A DNA stretch of 64,000 nucleotides from Candidatus Omnitrophota bacterium (GTDB taxonomy: Bacteria > Omnitrophota > Gorgyraeia > Gygaellales > Profunditerraquicolaceae), in contig WOZK01000030.1 in NCBI GenBank assembly GCA_011620275.1, positions 70,242-134,241 on the forward strand, in the 5' to 3' direction. Positions 3,144 through 61,100 of this stretch are shown here, piece by piece. Within the stretch, counting starts at the first letter, position 1. Each line of letters starts with the position of its first letter. The notes under the pieces were generated by a model. It was not told the DNA's origin. It searched no databases and saw only the letters and a list, made by a program, of their open reading frames with translations. The position numbers and the translations under genes were made by a program.

Positions 3144-4697
3144 TTACTCGTCAGCTACATCTTCCTCGTAATCATCATACACATCTGTTTTCTGTTCCCT
3201 GAGCACGGAAAAATAGAGCGAAGAATCGCTCCCGGAGGTGATAACTGGGGCCAGCACGACGTAAGAATACCCCCGGGCCCTCAACGCCCTGACCATGCCC
3301 GGGGTATGGAACCCCCCTGTGATCAATACAGCCGCCTCTTCCCGCGATTCATCCATTTTCCTTTGCAGGTTTTTGACAAAAACCTTCTCCCTCGCGGCCC
3401 CCAGTTTGTAGAACTCTTCAAGGATCCCTATATTCCCGTCCACGGATTCTACCGAAACCGCGGGTTCCGGAATATTGTATTTCGCGCAATTCTCCTGCAA
3501 ATAGCTTTTCCAGGAAGCGACGCTGAACTTGTCTCGATTGGTTTTAAAATAGGAGTATTCCTCTGGAGTCAGTTCCAGATCAAAAAAATGTTTAAGCATA
3601 ACCGCCATCCGCGATATCTCCGACAGCCTACGCTGACTATCGTTAGTAAATGCCCTGTTCTTCAATTCCTCTTCCAGCGCCGATATCTCTTGGATCAGCT
3701 TTACCGGGCTGACGGAATTATCGCCGCAGATATAATCAATATACTTTGCCATGGCAGGATAATCCGTCTTTATATCGATGGCCGGCTGCGCCAGCGACTT
3801 CAAATAAGAATAATAATCTTTCGCGGTGATTTCCCCGTCCTTGAAACTCTGCGTTTTAGAGACCAATTTCTTGACTTCTCCGCTTTCAAGACCGGAGGCC
3901 AGGGTTTTAATGAAAACAACGCGTTCCGCTTCCGCCGATTTCAGATCCATGTTTTTCTCAATCTCGACGGTCCTGGTAAATTTTTCTATCGCCGGATAAT
4001 TGTTCAAAGCGACGGATACCTTGGAGGCGCAAGAAGAAAGATAGACGCAGTAATCGGCCAATTGCACTCCTTTCGACTCATAAGCCTCCTTCTTCTGTTC
4101 CAATTGCCGCAGCTCATCGCCATACAGAAAAAGCTTCAATTTATTCAACGAAGAAATTACCCTGTCCAGATGTTTAATCCCTTCTCCCCTTACCGCGTCT
4201 ATCTTCCAGAACGCATCCAAGTGAGCGTCATATAATCCTTCCTCGTCTATTCCGTATAATTCTATATCGCTGTCGGAAACAATATCGAAATATTCTTCCC
4301 CGGAGATCCGGCCTTCACGCAGGTAACGTTCGGCGACCTCCTGTCGTGTTTTTAGAGGCGCATATCCCCTTAAGGAAGAGAGCCCGACATAACCGTAACC
4401 GCCTTCAACCATTATCAAACGCAATCCGTAATTCCGCACAAGGTAATCAAGGACTTCCGCCGTATTCTTCTGCGCTTCATAGTTGCAGTGCGCGTCCTGG
4501 ATACAAAAAATGATTTTGGGATCGTTGTTTGTCGGAGTAGTTGCGTCAAACGTTTCTTTGATCAATATATTTTGGGAAGGGAATTTATAATCTTTTACGT
4601 GGAGCGCAGCTTGAGAGTTAAGGAGAGGAACAGTCAAGAGGAGGAAACTGAAGAAAACTATTTTAATTTTCTTTCTGTAACCAATTCTGCTCAGCAT
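3144..4697 (-). CDS. Exported hypothetical protein, possibly of the TraB/GumN/ChaN (TIKI-like) family.
   Basis: 517 aa. N-terminal signal peptide 'KIKIVFFSFLLLTVPLLNSQAA'. An N-proximal 'IFCIQDAHCNYEAQ' and a C-proximal 'LITGGFHTPGMV' fit the paired GxxH...GxxH layout of TIKI/TraB proteins. The family call is tentative. Confidence 0.45.
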   Translation of the reverse strand: MLSRIGYRKKIKIVFFSFLLLTVPLLNSQAALHVKDYKFPSQNILIKETFDATTPTNNDPKIIFCIQDAHCNYEAQKNTAEVLDYLVRNYGLRLIMVEGGYGYVGLSSLRGYAPLKTRQEVAERYLREGRISGEEYFDIVSDSDIELYGIDEEGLYDAHLDAFWKIDAVRGEGIKHLDRVISSLNKLKLFLYGDELRQLEQKKEAYESKGVQLADYCVYLSSCASKVSVALNNYPAIEKFTRTVEIEKNMDLKSAEAERVVFIKTLASGLESGEVKKLVSKTQSFKDGEITAKDYYSYLKSLAQPAIDIKTDYPAMAKYIDYICGDNSVSPVKLIQEISALEEELKNRAFTNDSQRRLSEISRMAVMLKHFFDLELTPEEYSYFKTNRDKFSVASWKSYLQENCAKYNIPEPAVSVESVDGNIGILEEFYKLGAAREKVFVKNLQRKMDESREEAAVLITGGFHTPGMVRALRARGYSYVVLAPVITSGSDSSLYFSVLREQKTDVYDDYEEDVADE

Positions 4698-4857: not shown

Positions 4858-5664
4858 TTAAGGAATAATAAAAGCCAATATTCTGTGCCCAAACAGGAAC
4901 GAAAATATAGCTGCCAGAGAAAGAAACGGCCCGTAAGGAATTACGTGGCTCTTCTTGAAAACCAGATTAATGATACCCGCGATCGCACCCGGAAACGGAG
5001 CAAGAAAGAAAGTCATCACCGCCTTGTCCGGCCCCAGGAATGCCCCGATCATCGCCATCAATTTCACGTCTCCCATGCCCATAGAAGAAGTCTCTCCTTC
5101 CACCGGGGGGTTCTTCAGGATGCGGAAATATACCAGGTCGAACAAAGCCCCGGCCGCGTAGATGATGCCTGCCCCGGCCGCTGCGCCCAAGAGGCTGCGA
5201 AGAACAGGATGCCAATCAAAGATTACCGGCTGCGGCCTTATACCGGATAAAACGTTCAACAGCAGCGCGGCCGCGGTTCCTCCTATTGATATTTCGTCCG
5301 GGATGATCTGATACTGTATGTCCACGAAAGTCGCTACGCAAAGCAAAGAAAAGAACAGACAATAATATACCGCCTGGGCCTGTGCACCGTAAATCGCCCC
5401 CATAAGCAGAAAAAAAGAGCCGGTAATGAATTCCACCAGCGGGTAACGCAGGGATATCGGTTTGCCGCAATGCCGACATCGGCCTTTCAAGATAAAAAAA
5501 CTCAACAAAGGGATATTATCGAACCAGACGATGTCTTTGGAACAGGACGGACAGTGCGAACGGGGAAAAACGATCGATTGGTTCAACGGCATTCTGTGGA
5601 TGCAGACGTTCAGGAAACTGCCGACAATGGCGCCGAAAACGAAGAAAATCAGCGGGATGATCAT
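4858..5664 (-). CDS. pilD: Prepilin peptidase (type IV leader peptidase/N-methyltransferase, A24 family).
   Basis: 'GSFLNVCIHRMP', the tetra-Cys box 'CPSCSKDI...RCRHCGKPISLRYPLVE', and multiple TM helices with catalytic Asp positions typical of PilD. Confidence 0.85.
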   Translation of the reverse strand: MIIPLIFFVFGAIVGSFLNVCIHRMPLNQSIVFPRSHCPSCSKDIVWFDNIPLLSFFILKGRCRHCGKPISLRYPLVEFITGSFFLLMGAIYGAQAQAVYYCLFFSLLCVATFVDIQYQIIPDEISIGGTAAALLLNVLSGIRPQPVIFDWHPVLRSLLGAAAGAGIIYAAGALFDLVYFRILKNPPVEGETSSMGMGDVKLMAMIGAFLGPDKAVMTFFLAPFPGAIAGIINLVFKKSHVIPYGPFLSLAAIFSFLFGHRILAFIIP

Positions 5665-6590: not shown

Positions 6591-8101
6591 CGCCCGCTCA
6601 ACCGGTTTATGGCGTCAAGATAAGCTTTGATGGCAGCTTCGATGATATCGGTGCTGGCCCCCCTGCCGCCGAAGACCCCGGCTTTCAGCTTAAGACTCAA
6701 GCTCGCCTGACCGAGGGCATCCTTGCCTGAAGTAACCGACTCCAGACGGAAATCCTGCAGCCTGGCTTTCAAACCGGTAATCTTATCTATTGCCTTGAAA
6801 CAACTGTCCACCGGGCCGTCACCCGAAGCCTGCCCACTCAACAGGCGGTCGTTCTTCTTCAAGCGCACGACGGCAACCGGAGTAGAGCCGCTGCCGCAGC
6901 AAACCTCGAATCCCTGCAACTCCCACAAAGGTTTGCTATGCCTGAGCTGATCATCGACGATTATACGCAAGTCGTCGTCGTAAATTTCCTTCTTTTTATC
7001 GGTCAGCTGTTTGAAACGCGCGAACGCGCTGTTGAGCTCTTCGGCCGTGAGCTTGAAACCCAAGGTTTGCAGCCTTTCCCGTAACGCGTGTCTGCCGGAA
7101 TGCTTCCCCAGCACGATCTCGCTGCCGGCCACCCCGACGTCTGCTGGATCCATGATCTCATAGGTCGTCCGCTTTTTTAACACCGCATCCTGATGTATGC
7201 CGGACTCGTGGCTAAAAGCGTTCTTTCCCACGATGGCTTTATTCAACGGCACCACGAAATCGGTGAGCTTACTGACCAATTTGGAAGCATTCAATATTTC
7301 TTTCGTATTTATCGAAGTGTGTAAATTGCTGAACGCATCCTTCCTGGTTCTCAAAGCCATCACAACTTCTTCCAGAGATGCGTTGCCGGCCCGCTCGCCT
7401 ATGCCGTTCACCGTGCAATGCACCTGGCGCGCTCCGGCTAACACCGCCGATACGGAGTTTGCGCTCGCCATGCCGAGATCATCATGGCAGTGAATGGAAA
7501 TGACCGCCTTATTTATATTAGGAACGTTGTCCTTTATCTCCGAAATAAGGGAATATATCTCGGCAGGGTAACTATAGCCGACCGTATCCGTAATATTCAC
7601 GGTGGAAGCTCCGTTCTTTATCACGTTCTCTATTACTCTAAAAAGAAAAGAGCGCTCGCTGCGGGTGGCGTCTTCCGGGGAGAACTCCACGTCCGGGCAG
7701 AGTCTTCGTGCGGCCCTCACCGCCTGCACTGCCAACTGCAGTATCTCGTCTTCTCTTTTGTGGAACTTATACTGCAGGTGTATCTTGGAGGTGGCGAGGA
7801 AAACGTGTATACGCGGTCTCCGAGCTTTCTTCAAAGCCTTGGCCGCGGCATCTATATCCGGTTTCAGGCAGCGCGCGAGGGCGCAAACGGACTTCTTTTT
7901 TACCGAAGACGCGATGCGAGCCACGGCCTGAAAATCATCCGGACTGGATACCGGAAAACCGGCTTCGATAACATCCACCCCCAGCCTTTCCAGTTGAAAA
8001 GCAACCTCAAGCTTTTCCTGGGAAGTCAGCGAACCTCCGGGGGCCTGTTCTCCGTCCCTTAACGTTGTATCGAAAATTATGACCTTTTCCATTTGTTTCA
8101 T
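6587..8101 (-). CDS. leuA: 2-isopropylmalate synthase (LeuA/CimA family; could instead be citramalate synthase).
   Basis: 'IFDTTLRDGEQAPGGSLT', 'HCHDDLGMA' and 'HESGIHQDA' HMGL-like motifs, plus a C-terminal LeuA dimer/regulatory domain. The 504-aa length fits the short LeuA/CimA type. Confidence 0.85.
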   Translation of the reverse strand: MKQMEKVIIFDTTLRDGEQAPGGSLTSQEKLEVAFQLERLGVDVIEAGFPVSSPDDFQAVARIASSVKKKSVCALARCLKPDIDAAAKALKKARRPRIHVFLATSKIHLQYKFHKREDEILQLAVQAVRAARRLCPDVEFSPEDATRSERSFLFRVIENVIKNGASTVNITDTVGYSYPAEIYSLISEIKDNVPNINKAVISIHCHDDLGMASANSVSAVLAGARQVHCTVNGIGERAGNASLEEVVMALRTRKDAFSNLHTSINTKEILNASKLVSKLTDFVVPLNKAIVGKNAFSHESGIHQDAVLKKRTTYEIMDPADVGVAGSEIVLGKHSGRHALRERLQTLGFKLTAEELNSAFARFKQLTDKKKEIYDDDLRIIVDDQLRHSKPLWELQGFEVCCGSGSTPVAVVRLKKNDRLLSGQASGDGPVDSCFKAIDKITGLKARLQDFRLESVTSGKDALGQASLSLKLKAGVFGGRGASTDIIEAAIKAYLDAINRLSGR

Positions 8102-8181: not shown

Positions 8182-9177
8182 CTACGCCTTCTTCATCCAG
8201 GGCATCATCTCCCTGAGTTTACGGCCGACTTTTTCTATCTTATGGTTATCTCCGGCCTTAAGCAGCTTGTTGAATACCGGACGTCCTTTTTCGTTCTCTT
8301 TTATCCATTCCTGGGCAAATTTTCCGGTCTGTATTTCCTTGAGTATCTTTTTCATTTCCTGTCTGGTTTTTGCGGTAATCACCCTTTTACCCCTGGAAAG
8401 GTCGCCGTAGCAGGCGGTGTTGGAAACTCCGCGGCGCATGCCGGCTATGCCGCGCTCCTGGATCAGGTCGGTGATAAGCTTCAACTCGTGCAGCACCTCG
8501 AAATAGGCTATCTCCGGCTGGTATCCGGCGTCTACCAGCGTATCGAACCCGGCCATTATCAACTCGGAAACTCCGCCGCATAATACCGCCTGCTCGCCAA
8601 AAAGATCGGTTTCGGTCTCTTCCGCGAAAGTGGTCTTGATGACTCCGGCGGTTGTCGCCTTCAGGGCCTTAGCATAAGCCAGCGCCAGATCAAGCGCCTT
8701 TCCACTGGCGTTCTGATAAACCGCCACCAGAGAAGGAACGCCTTTCCCTTCTTCATACATCTTGCGCACCAAAGCGCCGGGACCTTTGGGAGCGACCATG
8801 AACACGTCCACGTTCTTGGGCGGCACGATCTGCTTGAAATGGATGTTGAACCCGTGCGAAAAACAAAGCGCCTTGCCGGCGGTAAGGTTCGGTTCTATCG
8901 CCTTACGGTAAACGACCGCCTGCACGTGGTCCTGTGTGAGGATCTGTATAATATCGCCGCGGCGCGCCGCTTCTTCTGCGCTTACCGGAGAGAACCCGTC
9001 CTTTTTTGCCTGTTCGTAGTTAAGCGTCCCGGGAAGCTCTGAAACCACCACTTTACAGCCTGAATCGCGCAGACACAACGACTGCCCACGCCCTTGTATA
9101 CCGTAACCGAGGATAGCGACTGTCTTATCCTTCAAAAGGTTCAGATCCGCATCCTTATCGTAATATACCTTAGCCAT
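8182..9177 (-). CDS. ilvC: Ketol-acid reductoisomerase (class I).
   Basis: '[21 protein letters not shown]' Rossmann motif, 331 aa, strong KARI similarity throughout. Confidence 0.9.
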
Positions 9178-9187
9178 CTTCCCTCCT

Positions 9188-9691
9188 TTATGCTGTTTTT
9201 GACTTTGGCGTGAGGTCTCCGGTCGCCATCGCGATCTTGCCCGCCCGCACCAGTTCTTTTATGTTGAAACGTTTTGCCTCTTCCAGCGTCTTCTTCAGTT
9301 TTTCCTGATCCCCGACTATCTCGACTATCGCCGTATTTCCCCGGCAATGAGTGACTCCCGCTCCCCATTTCTTCGCCAGCGACTCCAGCGCCGCCTTGTC
9401 TCCGGCGGTACAGGACACCTTGATCATCATCAACTCCCGGTCTATGTAATCCTTCTTGGTGAAATCGGTGACCGTGATAACGTCTATCAGTTTGTTCAAC
9501 TGCTTCTTGACCTGTTCGAGTACCTTCTCGTCCCTGGTATCCACCACCATCGTAAGATACGATATGCTGGGGTCGAGGGTCTCGCTGACGGAAAGCGAAA
9601 TAATGTTGTATCCGCGGGCGCTGAACAACCCGGCAATCCTCGCCAGCACTCCGAATTTGTTTTCCACCAGTATAGATATCGTGTGCCTCAT
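9188..9691 (-). CDS. ilvN: Acetolactate synthase small (regulatory) subunit.
   Basis: '[33 protein letters not shown]' ACT domain, 167 aa, adjacent to ilvB. Confidence 0.85.
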
Positions 9692-31163: not shown

Positions 31164-34100
31164 TCACAGATAAATATCCGTCATATTGCAAACCCCAGAC
31201 AAACCGATACTTATGAAACTTAATGAAGGCAGTGAAAAAGACATCCCCTGCGTATAGAAAGTGGAACCATTCTCCTCGCCGCGAAAGACTGCGTTGTATT
31301 GTTCAACAGGCCTCCATCCTTGCGCAGAATCCATCCCAGGTTCAAGAAAGCGCGCTGCGTCTTCATCGAATATCCCTACCGCGTCCCTTTCGCTGCACCC
31401 TCCGTCCAACGGGTTAAAAACCTCGGCTAAAACAGCCGGCGTTCTCTTCGGATCAAAATCTTTAATAAGCTCATCATTGCCATTTCTTAACGCTCGGATA
31501 AGCTCTTTATCTACGAATTGCCGGCCAAGAATATACACAACCATCCCGTCGATATCTTTTAATTCCCCTATTTTCCCTTGAGCCTCCATCAACTCGATCA
31601 AAAAGATAAATCCGAGCATCGATTGCGGTTCTCTCCGCGTGCGCAAACGGGTAAAAATATTGATTATCGAAAACATCCTGTCCGCCATATAATACAGGCA
31701 GACAACGTTTTGTATCAAAACAGGTCTGATACAATTCAAAAGAAGCAACCGGATCATACCGATAAACGCCTCCGGCTGGTTGTATCCGGCGCGCTCTGAG
31801 AGATAGAGAAAATCTTTTATTATCCCCTCTTTCTCGGTTTCAGCGAGACTGAATTTACGGGCTATTTTTCCGGCAGCCGCATAATTATCAGGTGATAATG
31901 AAGAAAGGATATTACGCCTGTGGCCGGGATAATCATGCTTAAAAGTGTCGATAGTGCTGTATAATGAAACGGCAATGGAATTTTTTTCTTCGGGAACCGG
32001 CCGATTTTCCGCAAGCACCGCTCCGTCACGATATACAACGGAATTAACCGGCACATAGCGCAGAAAACTCAAATAATCCAGTAAAGTCCTGCCTTTGTTG
32101 TCTCCGGAAAGCGCCTCTTCCGGTAATATTATATGCACCGGCCTGTGCTTATTGAATACGGCATAAACGATAAAGATCCCATAGGCCTTAAATATACAAT
32201 CAAATAATTCTCCTCCTGTCAAAAAGACGGTTATGGGCGTTTCAGCGAAACGCGGACATAATCTATCGGCGGAGCCCCGTATCGCATCGACATCCGTATG
32301 ATAGATAATCCGGGGAATTCTCATACATTCGATTACGCAACCCCAGTCTTTTCCCCACACGTCAAGAGCAGCTATCAATTCATCTTCCGCCGCACGGTGT
32401 GATTCTTTATAATCTGCAACGGTAAATACGCCTATTACCCCTCTTCGCCCGCTTCCTCCATCTGCCACAACCGTGCCGCCGTTAACAACCCGTGCCTTTA
32501 TCATTTCCACGTAAGGCGCAATATCGTTAAGTATCACATCCCCTTGATCGCATTCTCCGCCGTCGCCCTTTTGCCCTTGCCCTTTTTCCGCAAGATTGAA
32601 ACCGGGATGCGTTTTCCTCATCTCAAACGCAACGGTTATGCCGAATTCCCGGGCGATAAAATCTACGTACGGCATGGAGGGTTTTTCCCCCGAATAACTA
32701 AATTTTTTCTTAGCCATAGACACTAATATCTGCCTGTCTAAAACAAGCTTCCCCTTCCTTTTTTCCAAGATTCCTTTCCCACTCCAGAACACGCTTAAAA
32801 TCTTACCGGGAGTGTAGCGGGAATTTGTAAAAACCGATACCGGGATCAGCCTCTTCAGGTATTTCTCATCAAATACAAAAGGCCCTTTTTCCCATTGTTC
32901 CCGTATAATCCTCATTAAAACCGGAATCACATAGTTTTGAGTCGCGGGGAAACTCATGGCTGTATTTTTTGTCAAATCAGGCAAACAATAATAGGTAAAC
33001 ATATCTTTTCCCAGTATTCCGCGCCGCTTTAAAAAATCCTCGAAATTTTTATCAAAAACCCGTAATCCCCATTCACCTACGGAAGAGGTGATCATTCCGG
33101 CGTTAAGCTTATTCAGTTTGTTTTTAATAAAATCGTATTTGCCTTTGGACTTACGGCTGATCTTAAGATATTCCATAACCATTCCCGAAGAAAAAGGATA
33201 TCCCAATTCACCGGATTTTATTCCCGCCAGGATTTCAAGTAAGAAATCCAGCGACCCTCCCGGCAAAACAGACAACTCTTCCCAGAATTTATTTTCAATG
33301 CCCCAAAACCGGCCGTTCTCTATTTCCACAACCGGTATCTTATCCATGCCTTTTAATTCTTCGTATAATCTTATGTCGGCCCGCATCCGGAGCAATTGGC
33401 CATACGTACCGTCAAGCAGGGATTGGTGAAATCTACCGGTAGAAACATATTCGCATAACAGCATTTTATCCGCCTCCAATTGCTTGACTATTTCTGCAAC
33501 TGTTTTCATATCCTCCGCACAACCAAAATGCGAGAGCACATCTTCCCGGGTAAAATCCATCTCCAGGAACATTCCGCATTTTCCCGGGATAATAACCGCG
33601 CTCTGTTCGGCTATCCAGCGTATTACGCTTTCCCGGCATACCGATCCTTTTAAATATGCTTCATCTTCCATTAATTCCCACTCTTTCAATAATTCCCCGA
33701 TAATCCTGATCGTTTTTCCGGACACTTGCCTTGCCGAAAAGTAATTTTTATCCTCCGCGCGCACCGCCGCCAGCATCTCACGCATACGCACGGGAGATCC
33801 GCCGGTTATTTCGAAAATTCTTTTCAAAACATGGGATTCCCGGGCGGATAACGGATGAGACTTTATGCCCGCGATAGTCAACCTTCTCCCGGCATTTTTC
33901 TCTTTAAAGAACTTCATAAAACCGATCAAACGGTTAAACCCGCCGGACCCGCCGGATAAAATCATAGTTTGAAATTTATCCGTAACGGAATACCTCTTTT
34001 CTACAACCCCGCTCCGCTCAAGATTCTCCGCTATCGCCGACACCGCGCTTCGGTCGGCGGGAGTGCGGTTTCCCGGAACAAATTGTTCAAGAATATCTTC

Positions 34101-49100: not shown

Positions 49101-52100
49101 CCCGAGAGTAAGCTTGCGCGCTCCGGCAAATTCACGCAAAGCCTGAAAGCTTTCCTTCAGCTTAATACTAAGCACATCCTCTTCGGATAAAGAATAATCT
49201 TCGCTCTCTTGCGCGTCAGATACCGCGGCGATCGACGCTTGTGCGACGTTGTGCCAATAGAGGGCGAACAGCAAATCACGTAAACTGAGCGTCTGTCCGG
49301 CCGCGGAATAAATATCACGGCCTTCCTGAAGAACTCCTTGGATTAAAAGCACTAATTCGTCCTCGGCCTCTTTCCGGGTTTGATATGCCAACCCTTTCGG
49401 ATATAAAAACCCGCCGCAATAATGACGCTGCGCTTTTATTTGAAATAAAGAGCCTTTTCTACAGGCTTCTTCCAAATATTCCGCATTACTATCCGTATAA
49501 TAGGACTCAATCTCAGCCGCAATGATGCCGATGGTAAGTGTAAGGCTGACGCGGGCACTCACTTTTTCATCAGGGTCGTATACCGTATACACAAAACCCT
49601 TCCGATCGGAATGCCAATAAACAATCATCCCGCCTTTCCTGGCCTGTTCCAGAAACACACGCGCGCGCGCGTCAAAATGAGCCCGCTGGGACGCCGTGTT
49701 CTCCCCGAAATAGGGGATATCATTATAAAACGCCTGCCTGGCAAGGCTGCGCAGAGGTTTCCCGTATTCAGAAGACCAGCGTAATGGAGCAGGCCGGCGC
49801 CCGGGATTTTCACAGAATACCGCATCCCACATATTCACCGCCATATATAAATCTCTATACCGGTCCTGCTTGACAAACCGTTCAAGATCGGCGCCGTAGA
49901 GATCCACAAGGACATTCAAGGCCTGTTCGGGGATCTTGCCGGAAAGAATCAAGACCTCAGGAGATGTACGCAGAAGAAATTCTTTGAGTGCCCGATTCCT
50001 CTCACGAGACAATATCTGCCGCAGACGCGGTAGAATATTTTTGTTATCGGCCCCTCCATCTTTACCTGTTCTTTTACGCCCTCCGGCCGGTTCAGTATGC
50101 CCGCCGTTTTTTTCTTCTCTTATACCTGTATTTAGCCGGGGGGAAATAATTCCTTGCGCGTCAGAGCCCTTCCGAATTTCTAACTCATATCCGCCGTCCT
50201 TGGTATTCTCTAAAGGCAGATTCAATACTGTTTGCGAAAATAGTCCTAAAATGTCCGTCTGGTTCCTTTCTCCGTTATATACTATTCCTTCAATAATCTT
50301 CACCGCAATATTGTTCAACCATTCCCCCTCCGGTCGGAACCCAAACCTAAGATAAAATATTAACGCGCCGGCCCCTAAAGCATCCGGGTTGTTAATCTGG
50401 CAGGAAGGAATAATAAATCTGTCCAACATGTATTCGTTATTCTCAAAAATACTGTTTACGACCGCCAGCCGCGAAGGAAAGATTTCCCTTGCCCTGTGTT
50501 GTGGCCTGTATTCCTTAAAAAAGTGCATACCTAAAGATAGGTCTCCTCCAAATAAATGGCTGAGACCGTAACCAATTATTTTCTGTGTGTTCTTATCCAT
50601 AAAAATCTCGAGAAATCCTTCCAAGTTGATGTCTCTTTGATCCGGGATTAGAACCAAAGAAGTATTTTGGTCCAACTCCGCCCGGTAAATAGTTTGAAGA
50701 TCCAAGAGACCAAGATTCGCCAAACTGTTTTTTTGTCTAAGTAATTCCACGGCAGGGATGGATAGAGTTTCAGCAGATAATCCGGTTATTTTATTGACTT
50801 TTATCTCACAAGGACGACGCAGTAATTCTCGCATCTCTTTGGGAAGCATCCACATCCCTAATTCCCAACGTAAAGAAGGAATCCCCTGACCGGAAGCAAG
50901 GAGCGGAGGAAATTTTCTCCCCCCATCCATTCGATCTGTCACCGTTACTCTCCCACTTCCCAGCACACCTTCCAACGGACACGATGTCTTTTTTATATTA
51001 CCCCCGTCTAAATTGCCGGAGACACCAGCCTGAGGTCGGGGTTTGTCAGGTAACTTTAAGGCTATATAGAAACAAGTTATCGCAAGCCCCCAGCATGTTC
51101 CTGCCGGAAAATCTAAACCGGAGAGATACGATAATAAACCTAAAGGTATAATCATGCCTGCCAGGATTAAATATAGAAGCGGACTCTCTTCCTTGGACTT
51201 TTCCGCAATATCATCTTCGCTTATAAACAATAATACCGCGGCCCCGAATAATGTTCCGCCCCATACTCCCTGAATCACAAAACCCGCGAGCATAAATATA
51301 AAACCCTTGATTGCGTGAACACCTCCGTCACTACGGACTGCTCCCGAAGATCCATTGTCTGTGTCTTTCCGCTTTATTTGCGCTTTCCACCATTGCGGCA
51401 GACTGGAAACCGGGATGTTTATATCATATTTCTCCAATTGTTCCAACCCGGTCCAATCACGTTCCCATAGATGCAAGATGGCGGGGGAAGCTATCTCTCC
51501 CATCACATACCAGTCGGGAAAACATTCCACAAAAAATTCATATAAACGTGAATGTATTAGCGAACCATAACCTTTGTGTTGGAACTTCCAGCTCATTGCC
51601 AGATTCTTCAGCCAGAGAGTTTTGTTTTTATTGACCTTTCCCGCTTTTTTCGAGAAAGGAAAATTAGTAAATTCAAATAAGAAAAGAATACCTTTATTGC
51701 CCGCGCCCACTTCATGAACATAAATAGGATTTGTCCCAATCTGCTCATATCTCGCCTGCTCAAGGATTTCCTTTTCAGCAACCAGCAGCCGGATCTCAAA
51801 AAGCTCCTTTTCACCTATTATCCTGACATTCTTCATATACGCGTAAACCAATGTTCCTTGACCCGCGGTATATTCATATCTCCCGTTCCAGAACGAGGCA
51901 CGACCTCCCTGAGGATAATCTTCACGTATTAGTACTCCTAAAGGTCCCCCGTTCTTAGATTCCAACTCCTGCCCCAAACGCCCCAGCCAGGAATAATTCT
52001 CAAACATATCCGCCCGGGCGCCGCCGTCAAAACCGAAAGATTCATCTCCCGGCTGATATATCCCTCCCCTTTCTCTATACCGTTTCAACAACGGCTGAAG

Positions 52101-55100
52101 AATATTGCAGGGAATCGCCCAATGCAGCTCTCTCACAGGCGCGTCTTTCCGCAACAGTTCCTTGACATAGGAGGAACTGACATTTGTATAAACATACGGC
52201 ACCAAGAATACTGTCGGTATCGAAGGAGCCAGTAAAAGGTTGGCCCAGGCAAGCGGAAGTTCGCTCTTTAGATCCTTATAGTCCCTGACCCCGCGCCGAA
52301 ACACCCCCGCGCCAAAACTGCGCGCGCAATCAACCGTCAATCCGTCGTAACAAATAACCTTTACATTAGTAATCCCGGCGGTTTTCAGGCAAAATTCGAT
52401 CATCGCTTTGTTCTCCTGCCGCGAAAACCACTGCTTCCCCTCCTTATCCGGGTTGGGACCGATACCGATGTAAACAGTATCGAACATCGCCACCGCCCTG
52501 CGCACTACTTCCAGGTGCCCGTTGGTGAAAGTATCGGCAGACCGGGAATCGTCCTTAAAATACCCCGGATACACGGCAATTATGCCTTTGCCTGTTGCAT
52601 CGCGAATGGGTTCCCGGGAAAACCGTAACGTTCCAGATGTGGATAGCGAAGACTGCCGTTCCCCGCCGTCACGGCTATTTTTGCGCAAACTGCCGGCCGC
52701 TTCTCTTTTAGCGGAAAGACGATGATGGAAAACCTTGAACCATCCGCGGTGTTCCTTTAGGAAATTATACGCCGCACTCAACGCTTCCTGAAAACTCAAA
52801 TCATTTTCGATGCCCGGGTAAATTATACGGTCTTTTAGACACTCCATAGTCTTTGCCGGAGAATATCCTTCCTGATCAAGCCGCATACAGAGTTTCGCTA
52901 ATAGAACAAGATTATCCTGGTACAAACTAACATCCCCTTTTGAAAAGCGCGCGGCCAAAGGAACTCCGATCTCCAGCACTTTACATATATGGAATATTCC
53001 GGCGTCCAGTAATCGCTCCCCCATATCAACGGCAGGTTTGACCCATTCGCCGTTGTATCCCTCTAAGGCCGCGAGCATCTTTGGCAGGGCTCTTTCACAT
53101 AGATAGTTAATGCTTATTCTTAAGGTCTGCGCTTTTTCAATCAATCCGCTTATTGGCGAAGTCGGAGGAATAACAGAGATTCGTTCGGTGGTTTCCCCGC
53201 CGTCTTTTTGGGCCTTTTCCTGTTCCTGCCTACTCACCTCTGGAAGAATACGCCTGCGTATCTTTAAGAGGTATTTTTTCTGACACGGAACCCCAGCCTT
53301 CCGTACTGCCTTATACAAATCATCGCCATTCAAGTCGCCTTTCTTCTCGATCACGTCTAATATTATTTTCTTAAGCAAATAATCTCTCGCTTTACAACAC
53401 AAATCCTTCCAATCCTTAAACCAGTCGTTACGGCATTTATGAAAAGCAATTTTAATTTTCGGGTCGTGTTTAAATACTTCTGTTTTAGAAATGGGACTTG
53501 CCTTTCTACTTGGCCCTCTCTGAGCGCGAATTTGTTCTAACGCGGCGTTAACCCTTTGAAATAATTCTTCTTGAGTCTTTATATCCTGATAAATATCCTC
53601 TTCATTAGTTATTTGCAATATAAACAACCGGAACCGGCAGTCTAAACGATATTTTCCTCCATATGGAGCAGGCGACAACAACTTTTCTCCTCCGCAATCA
53701 AGCTTGCCTACCAGCCTGCTGAAGAATTTGTTATTCATTAAAATGTAGGAAAGCTTCCCGTTCCACCTTTTAACTTTGGCCACGTAGATCTTCTCATTTG
53801 GTTTGGTGTTATGCGCGACAGCTGTCAACACCTCCCGTTCATCTTGCGATAGCCCGTTCCAGAGCGGCATGAACATCTCAGAATCTACCGTTTGCTCTGC
53901 CTCATGCGTTCCGCCGTCAAGAACATCCATACTCCCTTTTTCCACACCGGCCGGAAAATCAGGCTTACCATCCGCTCTATACTTCCGTATCTTCATCTTT
54001 GATATCTGGCCGATGTACAAAAGATACAGGCCGGACAACAGTTCCCGGAGTATAGGATCCATGAAAGACTCCGGCGTGTAACCGCGGGAAAGAGCCACGG
54101 TTATTACATATGGCTTTACCTTTTTCTCTTCCAGAATCTTACAGATTCCTCGGATCTGCTTTCGTAATATCCCCAATATGCCCTCTATCTCCGCTTCTTG
54201 CTTGTCTTCAATCGGGCTTATATTTTTATCCCAGAAGTAATCGGCGTCGAAATCGAGGATCACCGGTTTGCGGTTCAGGCTGAAATCCGGCAGTTCATCC
54301 GTATAAACCTTGTGCACTTTTATTCTACGCACCGCGCCTACCGTTATATCCCATCCTGTATTTTCTCTGAAATCCATCACCCAACTTCCTTCTTCCAAAG
54401 GATGAACCGGCCGGAAATAAATCACAGGATGCGTTCCGGTGCCATTTTTAACCGTCAGGTCAGCAACATACATATCGATCTCCTTCCGCTCACTGATAAG
54501 AAAATTGGCGAAATAACGATAGCTGTTGACGGGTTTGAATATGGGCGAGACATCGGGATTCCAATAAAGATATTTTCTTCGACCATCACGCATATACTCC
54601 GGCAATACCCAGTATATCTCATCGACATATCCATCATATACGGCCGGGGATATAAATTGATCAAAGGCGGGGCGTCTCCGGGCGACGGCCTTGATACTTC
54701 GAGACAACGGGTAAAAATCCCAAATGTCGCACATATCCTGATGCGTGTCAAAATGTATCAAAACAGCAGGATTGGTAATACGCTTCAGGAGCCTGCCGAT
54801 CTCCCAAGATGAAAACGCGTCCCCATGGTTTTCCATAAGAAACATCCGCGGAGCCTTGGAAGGACCTTGAACCTCAAAAATGCTATCCCTCCCTGCTTGC
54901 AAAATCGTTTTTACTAAAGAGGACCGGCTAAAGCTCTCCCTGCCGCCGCGTATAGTGTCTCTTACGGCCGAATCTACCGCTTCTGTACTTACCATCCCCT
55001 TTTTTAAAGAAGCATCTCTTGGAGTCACTAATTTCCCTTTGCCGCCGTCCTGTTCACGGGCATAACCACGGTAATTCTGCACAGCAGCCGCTCCGCCTTC

Positions 55101-58100: not shown

Positions 58101-61100
58101 CTTGCCATTGGAACACAAATGCCTCAAGGCTGCATTTGTACGGAAACCATTCTCCCGCATCGCTTTTTTTATGTCCTCCCGCGAGGCCTTACCGGCCGGC
58201 ATATTCTTGATACCCTGTACAGGCACAGATACCTTTTTGCCTGGATCCCCGGATTTCTTAAGATGATCTCCGAATAATCCGAATTCCTTTTCCTTAGCAC
58301 GGAATTCCGCGCTTTTCTTGCGTAATCTTCGCACCCTCGTTTTGAAAGTATTCAGCTTGACCACATATCCTTCCTTTTGAAGCAAAGCGAGAGCGCGACT
58401 ACCGTGAAAATTAGTTCTCTCCATGCAATCAAGGATAACTTCATCCGGGACTCTGTCGGCATAGAACTTCTCTTTAACAGCAGCTTTGTGACGTTCGATG
58501 ACTTCTAAATACTTGGGGTCTTTCCTCAACTGCCGATAATGATGTTCACTGATCCCCAGACGCTTAATTGCCGATTCTATAACGCCTCCGGCATCCGCAA
58601 GCGCCTGGTCAAGCTCTTGCGGGGAAGGGCTGATAGAAGGAGGATAAACTCTTTTATTCCTATCCCTGCCGATAATAAAATAGTACCCTTTACCTTCTCT
58701 GTCAGAAACAGGACTGCCTTCTTTATCCTTGATAATCCGGACTGCTCTTACTCTGCCATCTTTGATCACCACCTCGGCCTCTGCTTGAGGAAATCGAGAG
58801 AAAGTTTTCCATGTGCGGTTGCCCACATAGACTGCTCCGGAAGGAGGCAATATGAAATTCTTTAACGTATGGTCCTGCAATTTACTTAATTCTTTTCCGG
58901 ACAAATGGAACCGTTTCCCCTCCATCGCACTTGTCGCATTATTCCAGACCTCAAACGGGACAGACATCTTATACCGCCCGTCCCCGCCGTCATTGTTAAG
59001 AACTTTTTGTATAATCTTCCCCAGAAAAGCGGCGTCTCTTGCCGCAACCCTCTTAATATTCTCAGGGGTAGATTCATATTCAAGGATAAATACTTCCGAA
59101 AAACCGCGTTCTTTAATCAATATTTTCAATACTTCTTCCAGCGCGCCATTCAACGAAAGGGCCTTATATAAAGGAAGATGGATTTCTTTTGTCATCTGAT
59201 TAAGGAAATCGCTTCCATGAGCGTGAACTACCGCTATGGGAATATCCGTATCAAGTTCACGCAGAAATTTATCAGGAGCGCCTTGCGGAGAAGCCAAAGC
59301 ATGTCCCAAATCCAGCGTCATCCCCAGATGTTTTTTCTCCCGGGAGCTTAAAATCCCGGATAAAGACGCGAATGTCGAATTCATATCAGCCGCGCTATGC
59401 CAGTCCGCGTTTAGCTTTATTGGGATCTGATGGACATTTTCTATGCTCAAAACAACCTTTTCCCTTTCAGCTAACCGGACCAAAGGAAGAACACTGTCGG
59501 TGAATAGTTTTCCCGGAGTAGTCAAATGCATAGTAACCGCGCGCGCGCCGACTCGTGAAGCAAATTCAATTGTCTCCCGAATCGCCCGCGTATTTGCCTG
59601 TTCTTTAACAATATCGACATGCGGGGCGTGACAGGTCAAATAAACCGCGTTTTCTTCCGATGCCGCCTTTAGCGCGTCAACCGTGCTTGGACTGACAGAA
59701 GAAGGCCTGTATCCCGAAAACGCTATTTCAAGGCTGTTCAAATTTCCCCCGATCTCATTAACGGCTTTCAGCAAAGGAATAATGCCGCTGGCATCAGCGC
59801 CTTTCCAATAAGACGGTCCGGTTTTAAGCTCATATCCGCCGTCTTCTTTATCTCCTTCACCTGCCTGTTCACAAGGTTTATTCCCAAGCATAAGGTGCGC
59901 TGTAATCATAATAACATCTTCATCCGCCGGCTCATCCACCGGGCTGATTTCAATATAGAACTCACCTTCTCCAATCTCCTCCGGAGAGCAAGATTCCGTA
60001 TATCCGGCTTGCCGGAAGGCATTCAATATTTCCTGATATGCCGGCTCAACACCGCCAAACGCTTCCGCATGGACAACGAAGGTAATAGCGTTGGATAATT
60101 CCGATTTTCCTACACTGGATAATGCCGCTCTTCTGAGAATAAGCAGGCTGGAGGCCAGGTATTCATCAATCCCCAGATACCAGTTGCTTTCATCCGGCAT
60201 TACCACTGAAGGAATATTAAACAGCCACTGCAGCTCTCCGACCGGAATCTCAACCGGCACTTCGGTGATCACGCCTTTTTCATCGATCTCAATCCATTTA
60301 TTTCCATTCTCATAGTCTCGATCCGGAAAATCCTCTCTGCGGTGCGGCCCTATGGACTGCTCGGAGTATAAAGCACAAAGGATCACTGCCCAGGAGAAAT
60401 CGAGTTTATTGCGCAGTTCCAGAGCCTTTCTGGTTGTCAAGGTCATCTCCGAAATTTTTTCCCGCATCTCCTCTACCGCCCTCTTTGCTTCTGTCAGGCC
60501 TTCTTTATTCCTGGTCAACCACACATTTTTCTGCATTATTTCTCCCATCCGCCTATCCATCGCTTCAACATCAGACAGTTCTTCTCCCGGAGAAACACGG
60601 TATAATACTTCAGGAATAGCTATACCCGCCAAAGAAAGCTCTTCTTTTCCAAAAACATACTCCTTCATCGCCATAGCCGCGTTAAAAGCCATCTGTAAAA
60701 GCTCGGATAAGGAATTACTCGCCATGCGCTCTGCGCCATGAAGCCCGGTATATGCCGATTCTCCCAAAACAAACAGCCGTTTGAGCAAAGATCTGCCGGA
60801 TTTGTTCACGGGCGCGCCTCCTATGGTATAATGTGCCGCCGGCGCAATCCTGATCAAGTGTTCGGCCTCGTTAAAATTCTTGTCGCGCTTTTTAATCTCT
60901 TCATAGAGATTACCGAAATGCTCCTTAAAATCTTCCATATCGGGTATAAATAGGTAAACATATGGCTTGCCCGACTTCTCCATTTCCTGCAATATCGCCA
61001 GAGAAACCACATAACGTTCCGCCATTTCCAGCTTAGGGTCGTATTTATGCATGAAAAAGACCGGATTTCCGTCCTCATCAGGCTCAAGAACACAAAGCCG

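Follow-up and report, generated by a model that had tools for sequence, protein, structure and literature searches.

The window analysed here, a 64,000-nucleotide (nt) stretch of contig WOZK01000030.1 from a Candidatus Omnitrophota bacterium, carries on its minus strand, at 31164–63962, an uninterrupted open reading frame (ORF) of 10,932 amino acids (aa), which was recognized from the ORF list and its translation, from its relatives in Omnitrophota metagenome-assembled genomes (MAGs) and from its Pfam domains. This giant ORF houses the subject of the present analysis, a unit of 217 aa (residues 3765–3981 of the giant protein; 52020–52670, minus strand) that has a DGG tripeptide at both bounds (residues 3765 and 3979), is identified by TIGR01510 and by AlphaFold as a phosphopantetheine adenylyltransferase (PPAT; CoaD), and contains an expanded phosphate-binding loop. 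An earlier note on this DNA had described a CoaD-like nucleotidyltransferase module with an insertion in its P-loop at 52143–52595. The peptide is genuine: on the minus strand, this interval is translated without a stop as 'TGKGIIAVYPGYFKDDSRSADTFTNGHLEVV...TVFLVPYVYTNVSSSYVKELLRKD', corresponding to residues 3790–3940 of the giant ORF, and it contains '...GIIAVYPGYFKDDSRSADTFTNGHLEVVRRA...TVFLVPYVYTNVSSSYVKELLRKD' as reported. The plus-strand reading of the same interval was rejected because it is full of stops, which places the feature on the minus strand.

The CoaD-like unit and its expanded loop

The 217-aa stretch between the flanking DGG tripeptides served as the query for the profile, PDB and structure work, and the proposed family assignment was upheld at each level. 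The unit scores 109.5 bits (E = 1.5 × 10−31) against the TIGR01510 coaD equivalog, above the curated cutoff of 103.3, and it matches PF01467 (E = 6 × 10−11) and 34 different PPAT sequences of solved structure, headed by 3nd5 (E = 4.9 × 10−22). An AlphaFold2 model built from 113 sequences has a mean predicted local distance difference test score (pLDDT) of 86.9 and a predicted template modelling score (pTM) of 0.82; when this predicted model was compared with the PDB using Foldseek, the top 50 matches were all PPATs, with target-normalized template modelling (TM) scores of up to 0.92 and root-mean-square deviations of 1.6–2.1 Å, the enzymes of E. coli, Klebsiella and Enterobacter giving TM scores of 0.90–0.92. 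The fold and the C-terminal helices are common to the window unit and the CoaD/KdtB family (TIGR01510; PF01467 superfamily; E. coli PPAT, PDB codes: 1b6t, 1gn8 and 6b7a), and colinearity with PPAT extends, as the note had stated, through the C-terminal SSS-x-VKE block.

Residue conservation was judged against an alignment of 112 CoaD-like cluster representatives. The (T/H)xGH signature is present as T-N-G-H (giant-protein residues 3813–3816; 52515–52526, minus strand), with T in 109 of the 112 sequences and G and H in all of them; translation and alignment thus agree with the note that this motif is retained. Its His is the equivalent of His18 of E. coli PPAT, the role of which is documented (PMC12784347). 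The Lys at 52443–52445 (minus strand; K in 111/112) corresponds to PPAT Lys42, which binds the 4′-phosphate of phosphopantetheine, R-G-V-R at 52284–52295 (minus strand; R 104/112, G 111/112 and R 112/112) to Arg88-Gly89-x-Arg91, whose roles are likewise known, and S-S-S at 52170–52178 (minus strand; S 102/112, S 101/112 and S/T 101/112) to Ser128–130, which contact the β- and γ-phosphates of ATP (PMC12784347). In all, the unit retains (in its own numbering) T49, G51, H52, K76, R126, G127, R129, D133, E137, N144, T153 and S165–167, such that equivalents of TxGH, Lys42, Arg88/Arg91, Asp95, Glu99, Asn106 and Ser128–130 are all present.

The unit departs from CoaD in its setting and at its N-terminal end. 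Whereas CoaD is a free protein of ~160 aa, the window unit is embedded in a protein of 10,932 aa, and relative to CoaD it has seven additional residues between the equivalents of Phe11 and Asp12, the replacements Thr10→Tyr and Pro13→Thr, and a first strand that comes from a paralogous, presumably dead domain (see below). When E. coli CoaD and four representatives were used as tblastn queries, no separate coaD came to light in the 64-kb window. The insertion in the P-loop that the note had pointed out is real: it comprises the seven residues KDDSRSA (giant-protein residues 3803–3809; 52536–52556, minus strand), which separate G-x-F from D-P-x-T-x-G-H. The corresponding columns are empty in all 112 PPATs, and neither these (0/112) nor the giant-protein relatives described below (0/14) have any insertion at this site. 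Two further deviations, which the note did not mention, flank it: a Tyr (giant-protein residue 3801) follows 'PG', where 108 of the 112 sequences have Ser or Thr, and a Thr replaces the Pro of 'DP', which is present in 110. A contiguous G-[S/T]-F-D-P-x-T-x-G-H loop of fixed spacing is, therefore, not found in the window unit. In the AlphaFold model, the pLDDT falls below 50 in the inserted loop (unit residues 40–42), while the PPAT fold is kept.

Tandem PPAT units in relatives and a 642-nt deletion in the window

The initial homologous-protein search with the unit returned one distant CoaD (P0001) only; close relatives were found through an exhaustive representative search (P0002–P0014) and through scans of one genome per GTDB species (L001–L003) and of metagenomes (L004). 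The three GTDB relatives are contigs from two MAGs assigned to Candidatus Omnitrophota, have 73–86% aa identity and are the only close relatives in GTDB. Each of these contigs has one frame that stays open over its entire length, and they are, therefore, fragments of giant ORFs. The fourth relative, L004, sits on a metagenome contig of 245 kb, and most of P0002–P0014 are fragments of long proteins, the sizes of which reach 7,895 aa. The region of interest is readable in the five closest relatives (L001/P0002, L002, L003, L004 and P0003), which are 66–86% identical and three of which come from the Omnitrophota MAG contigs.

All five have two domains where the window has one: a degenerate PPAT paralogue without TxGH (domain A), which starts 'VYPGYFKDDSRSALY...', is followed by a canonical PPAT (domain B). 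The loop of the catalytic domain is uninterrupted in each of them, reading 'AGTFDPFTNGH' or 'AGSFDPFTQGH', and across all of the relatives the loops are canonical ('AFYAGTFDPFTNGH', 'FYAGSFDPFTQGH' and similar). Domain A lies ~215–230 residues upstream of domain B and begins 'GIITVYPGYFKDDSRSALYRSVI...', which equals the window sequence up to the Ala; past this junction point, domain A of the relatives continues 'CTTTACAGAAGCGTGATA...'. The window shares with the tandem units of its close relatives the upstream linker, the first strand and the place between DGG tripeptides within the giant protein; its domain B is 66–86% identical to theirs. A two-domain unit of the L001 type measures 430 aa. 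What it has lost, in comparison with the tandem units (those of L001/P0002, L002, L003, L004, P0003, P0005, P0007, P0009 and P0011), is a stretch of 214 codons that encodes the bulk of domain A, the linker between the domains and the first strand of domain B; rather than a complete domain A, only the first ~17 residues of that domain are left in its DGG-bounded unit. More distant relatives (P0005, P0006, P0007, P0009 and P0011–P0014; ~44–53% identical) also have two domains and a canonical loop, and all of the sampled lineages, to identities as low as ~30%, have the two-domain form. Stand-alone tandems occur too, namely P0008, a PPAT–PPAT protein with TxGH in both halves, and P0085 and P0059, in which the first half is degenerate.

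Purifying selection on domain B is strong among the relatives (dN/dS 0.05–0.13). The two preprints on Omnitrophota giant genes (West-Roberts et al. 2023, bioRxiv 10.1101/2023.11.21.568195; Nielsen & Lui 2026, bioRxiv 10.64898/2026.06.07.730766) do not describe a tandem of pseudo-PPAT and PPAT, and they mention neither PPAT, nor adenylyltransferase, nor DGG. The CoaD-type PPAT of giants of the Omnitrophota type can be described as a conserved pseudoenzyme–enzyme tandem, to which a dephospho-coenzyme A (dephospho-CoA) kinase is sometimes added. One of the MAGs, JBAZGE01, holds two giant-ORF fragments, L001 (JBAZGE010000085) and L003 (JBAZGE010000051), each with an intact tandem and with different neighbouring units, and so a single genome can harbour more than one such unit.

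Pairwise searches were insufficient to relate domain A to PPAT: domains A and B have no BLASTP similarity (best E = 9.9), and domain A alone gives no significant Pfam or PDB sequence match (PPAT 1od6 appears at E = 0.55). The homology is instead established by profile–profile comparison, hhalign matching an alignment of 11 domain A sequences to that of 113 PPATs over 132 colinear columns (probability 99.2%, E = 1.1 × 10−19), and by TIGR01510, which matches domain A colinearly (E = 1.2 × 10−4, 22 bits). An AlphaFold2 model of the two-domain L001 protein (pLDDT 79.7, pTM 0.81) predicts the same arrangement, with a domain A of PPAT-like β-α-β order, a disordered linker (residues 177–220) and then a canonical PPAT domain. 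In addition to its want of TxGH, domain A has no visible SSS in its C-terminal block, and it is presumably a degenerate, non-catalytic paralogue.

The deletion is evident at the DNA level. In blastn comparisons, nt 1–381 of L001 align with window positions 52917–52537 at 89.5% identity, and nt 1024–1573 with positions 52536–51987 at 94.0%. The two blocks abut in the window, while the 642 nt (214 codons) that lie between them in L001 have no window counterpart, either here or elsewhere in the 64 kb. Upstream of the junction is the domain A-derived segment (52537–52661, minus strand), consisting of the linker, strand 1 and the pseudo-loop 'GIIAVYPGYFKDDSRS(A)'; downstream of it is domain B, the canonical CoaD-type catalytic domain (52071–52535, minus strand), which runs from 'DTFTNGH' to the C-terminal helices and was additionally recognized by Foldseek. 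Codon-level alignment, together with blastn, places the junction itself (52536/52537, minus strand) inside an Ala codon, GC|C, a hybrid that takes its 'GC' from a GCG of domain A and its 'C' from a TTC of domain B. No microhomology is visible at the breakpoints in either alignment. Four bases downstream of the junction, CCT (Pro) has changed to ACT (Thr). The KDDSRSA heptapeptide is identical to the sequence in domain A of L001 and L002, where it is the counterpart of the DPxTxGH loop, hhalign setting 'DSRSALY' of domain A against 'DPxTxGH'. Since the synonymous divergence between domain B of the window and that of L001 is only 0.14, the deletion is recent.

We consider it likely, on these grounds, that the extra loop is the scar of a 642-nt in-frame deletion that joined strand 1 of the dead domain A to the live domain B; that the resulting chimera is impaired is somewhat more likely than not. 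The ancestral unit would have consisted of a degenerate, dead PPAT paralogue (A), a disordered linker of ~45 residues and a canonical PPAT (B). The deletion would have taken domain A after its pseudo-P-loop, together with the linker and the opening strand of domain B, to leave one chimeric domain in which 'AVYPGYF-KDDSRSA' of A is followed by 'D-T-F-T-N-G-H' and the rest of B. As the domains would have been joined out of register, the loop of the dead domain would precede that of the live one, and the result would appear as a seven-residue insertion. In a single giant ORF, moreover, an in-frame deletion would be the only route by which a unit could be lost without destroying everything downstream.

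The direction of the change follows from the sampling: the two-domain form is present everywhere else, and the single-domain 'PGYFKDDSRSADTFTNGH' arrangement of the window is unique among the sampled sequences, so that it is the window that carries a derived deletion. A pairwise indel is formally directionless, and the single-domain, long-loop form could in principle be ancestral, with a gain of 214 codons in the relatives; yet these codons encode a complete PPAT-homologous domain, the first strand of which the window retains, and the two-domain form reaches through all of the sampled lineages and into the stand-alone P0008, P0085 and P0059, which renders the reversed polarity extraordinarily improbable. 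An assembly or sequencing artefact in a genome that truly encodes both domains is also improbable, albeit not to the same degree. The assembly is of the metagenome type, and a related Logan contig exists, but there is no repeat common to both sides of the breakpoint, and the lack of BLASTP similarity between domains A and B makes a k-mer collapse unlikely. Furthermore, the deletion preserves the frame exactly (642 = 3 × 214) in an ORF that stays open over 32.8 kb, and in the unit that follows, L001 and L002 both differ from the window by similar in-frame deletions of unit size.

That next unit (51346–51987, minus strand; giant-protein residues 3993–4206) resembles GNAT by eye ('FQHKGYGS'). From L001 it is gone, the indel again measuring exactly 214 codons, and ~175 aa of it are missing from L002, with other breakpoints; there are, consequently, three unit-sized in-frame deletions within ~650 aa among three close relatives. 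The equal length (642 nt) of the indel of the GNAT-like unit and of the deletion in the PPAT unit looks coincidental. Gain and loss of units in these giant ORFs proceed through in-frame indels the size of a unit, as would be expected if the whole ORF must stay translatable. The Logan contig SRR10568503_164 (L005; 55,356 bp) encodes an identical LpxB, has the same neighbouring genes and covers the giant gene over its 3′ 3,930 codons, as far as the contig end, which points to the same or a near-identical population in SRR10568503.

Activity and function of the chimeric domain

In PPAT, Thr10 and Phe11 bind the α-phosphate of ATP through their backbone amides, and the hydroxyl of Thr10 binds the 4′-phosphate of the second substrate (PMC12784347). 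In the chimera, the scar is interposed between the amides that hold the α-phosphate and the TxGH helix, and Thr10 and Pro13 are replaced by Tyr and Thr, respectively; from these features, we infer an impairment and incline to the view that the chimera would be a weakened or inactive PPAT. The TIGR01510 score is consistent with this, as it drops by 16–22 bits, from 131.9 and 125.1 for domain B of L001 and L003, respectively, to 109.5 in the window. 

A number of points weigh against the proposed reading. Past the junction, every catalytic side-chain is preserved, the strand that domain A contributes conforms well to the PPAT consensus 'AVYPG-F', and T10A mutants of PPAT retain substantial activity (PMC12784347). 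Domain B of the window has two private substitutions, against one to three in L001–L003 (three in L001), although the deletion is too recent for this test to be informative about relaxed selection. Normal PPATs supplied the alignment that drives the AlphaFold model, which does not place the inserted loop with confidence, and the close relatives in which the region is readable number only five.

It is, accordingly, a plausible if less probable outcome that the deletion arose as proposed and yet left a fully competent CoaD, the seven residues bulging into solvent and the pseudo-domain being dispensable. Such an outcome would be in keeping with a fold that is predicted with high confidence outside the loop, with a score that is still above the TIGR01510 cutoff, with the retention of every invariant catalytic residue past the junction, with the ~28% of kcat/Km that the T10A mutant of H. 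pylori PPAT keeps (PMC12784347), and with a window lineage in which private substitutions are not in excess. It is harder to reconcile with an insertion between Phe11 and Asp12, in the very loop whose backbone amides bind the α-phosphate and at a site where neither the 112 PPATs nor the 14 giant-protein relatives have one. The Tyr in place of the Ser/Thr that contacts the 4′-phosphate, the loss of a near-invariant Pro and the reduced profile score argue in the same direction.

Enzymes of the CoaD family, which form homohexamers, convert ATP and 4′-phosphopantetheine into dephospho-CoA and pyrophosphate (PPi), and dephospho-CoA kinase then completes the synthesis of coenzyme A (CoA). In P0006, P0013 and P0005 (7,895 aa), the A–B unit is directly followed by a dephospho-CoA kinase domain; for P0006, the scores are 170.3 against TIGR01510 and 89.5 against TIGR00152 (cutoff 65.55), and PF01121 is matched with E = 4 × 10−24. 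Four further relatives (P0022, P0061, P0088 and P0113) are stand-alone CoaE–PPAT fusions of ~345 aa. Since distant relatives fuse the PPAT unit to dephospho-CoA kinase, the canonical small-molecule reaction is favoured, and the fusions support a role in ordinary CoA biosynthesis rather than in AMPylation in cis. In eukaryotes, the CoA synthase COASY is a bifunctional PPAT/dephospho-CoA kinase, and the bacterial tandem and kinase fusions may be regarded as the counterpart of this arrangement. COASY and these fusions have the CoaD-type domain in common with the window protein; unlike them, the latter has no CoaE domain, beside the PPAT unit or elsewhere, at a Pfam threshold of E ≤ 0.01.

The earlier note had further suggested that this could be an adenylyltransferase of altered specificity, for example one that AMPylates or loads a 4′-phosphopantetheine-like or other phospho-substrate in cis within the giant protein, which would make the loop an evolved determinant of specificity. 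Its description of a CoaD-like unit with an expanded loop in a giant protein stands; the altered specificity, AMPylation or cis-loading is not supported, as the loop was inherited through the deletion and the relatives are canonical. Some nucleotidyl transfer chemistry is conceivable, given that TNGH and the phosphate-binding residues are kept, and the domain does sit in a giant multi-domain protein. Set against this, however, are a loop that came from a dead paralogous domain and was not shaped in situ, its restriction to the window, the absence of any detected PP-binding or other carrier domain throughout the giant protein (Pfam, E ≤ 0.01), and kinase fusions in the relatives that indicate CoA synthesis from free metabolites; taken together, these make the suggestion very improbable. 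If the loop is a deletion scar, it offers no basis for inferring a new adenylyltransferase chemistry. The value of the analysis is, thus, mainly corrective, in that what appears to be an engineered specificity loop is more readily understood as the scar left where paralogous domains were joined by recombination or deletion. The chimera would then be a curiosity of the decay of a giant bacterial gene, and not evidence of a newly specialized enzyme.

The giant protein and its DGG tripeptides

The giant protein belongs to the multi-enzyme type that has been reported from the Omnitrophota, for which a class of 'multi-enzyme metabolic clusters' has been defined (Nielsen & Lui 2026). Like the members of this class, it exceeds 10,000 aa and combines several unrelated enzyme domains in one ORF, has no dominant repeat, contains hydrophobic segments that resemble transmembrane (TM) helices, and has its relatives in Omnitrophota MAGs. 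Five unrelated Pfam families are detected at E ≤ 0.01, namely, FAD_binding_2/Succ_DH_flav_C, AP_endonuc_2, UPF0489, CTP_transf_like and, weakly, HAD; these correspond to an NadB-like flavoprotein, a xylose-isomerase-like TIM barrel, UPF0489, the PPAT and a weak HAD match, respectively, while most of the units are unannotated. In distinction to the Omnitrophota giants in the literature, no C39, SecA or dockerin domain is detected at the same threshold.

The tripeptide DGG occurs 37 times in the giant protein, where 4.2 occurrences are expected, and is its most enriched tripeptide (8.8-fold); D precedes 37 of the 96 GG dipeptides. These tripeptides divide the protein into units of 22–856 aa, and every domain that is recognizable by Pfam lies between consecutive DGGs. 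At the boundaries of the PPAT unit, DGG is kept even in the divergent L003 and L004, despite their different flanks, whereas distant giant relatives are poor in DGG (two in the 7,895 aa of P0005, and none in P0007). A nucleotide-level motif was considered and rejected: Asp is encoded by GAC in 34 of the 37 DGGs, but it is mostly GAC before any Gly (24/34), and the Gly codons differ in their third positions. Judged from this codon usage, the GAC bias is mostly a matter of codon context, and DGG is a motif at the protein level.

C39 and S8 peptidase domains have been reported in Omnitrophota giants, and the cleavage points are stated to be unknown, which is named as an obstacle to the analysis of these proteins (West-Roberts et al. 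2023). It is tempting to suppose that the present protein is a polyprotein of ~37 units, in which DGG would represent double-glycine sites for C39-type peptidases and from which the PPAT tandem would be released as a pseudoenzyme–enzyme heterodimer, but we regard this as speculative and, on the whole, unlikely. Neither a C39 nor any other protease was found in the giant protein or in 20 neighbouring ORFs, with the exception of a type IV prepilin peptidase (A24) at 4858–5664. Were the polyprotein reading true, the scarred unit of the window would show that units are lost by in-frame deletion only, and the DGGs would be concrete candidates for the cleavage points.

Other features of the giant protein can be recorded more briefly. 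Two instances of internal paralogy were found, apart from which all of the units are unique in an all-against-all BLAST comparison. The first, the only pair of paralogous units, consists of adjacent N-terminal units (residues 164–344 and 345–520; ~62403–63473, minus strand) that are 28% identical; the second involves the tails of two units (residues 6026–6062 and 8472–8504), which share a 37-aa stretch ending in the linker 'AMHPDEKDGG'. Residues 711–1222 (~60297–61832, minus strand) resemble L-aspartate oxidase and the succinate dehydrogenase flavoprotein (FAD_binding_2 and Succ_DH_flav_C); the Pfam match of this unit begins at profile position 37, and its N-terminal dinucleotide-binding motif may, therefore, be divergent or missing. 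Hydrophobic 19-residue windows (Kyte–Doolittle > 1.7) cluster at residues ~4221–4283, 7880–8096 and 9244–9418 of the minus-strand product, and the ~14 TM-like segments of the protein suggest that membrane-spanning units are interspersed among the soluble enzyme units.

Outside the giant gene, a minus-strand ORF of 793 aa at 730–3111 matches phosphoglycerate kinase at residues 86–511 only; it is about twice the usual length of that enzyme, and its C-terminal ~280 aa are without a Pfam match at E ≤ 1 × 10−5. Ordinary chromosomal genes fill the interval 730–30272, among them lpxB, an msbA-like ABC exporter gene, rpsB, pyrH, frr, cofD, ptsI, metK, ahcY, pfk, ilv and leu genes and the gene for the prepilin peptidase.

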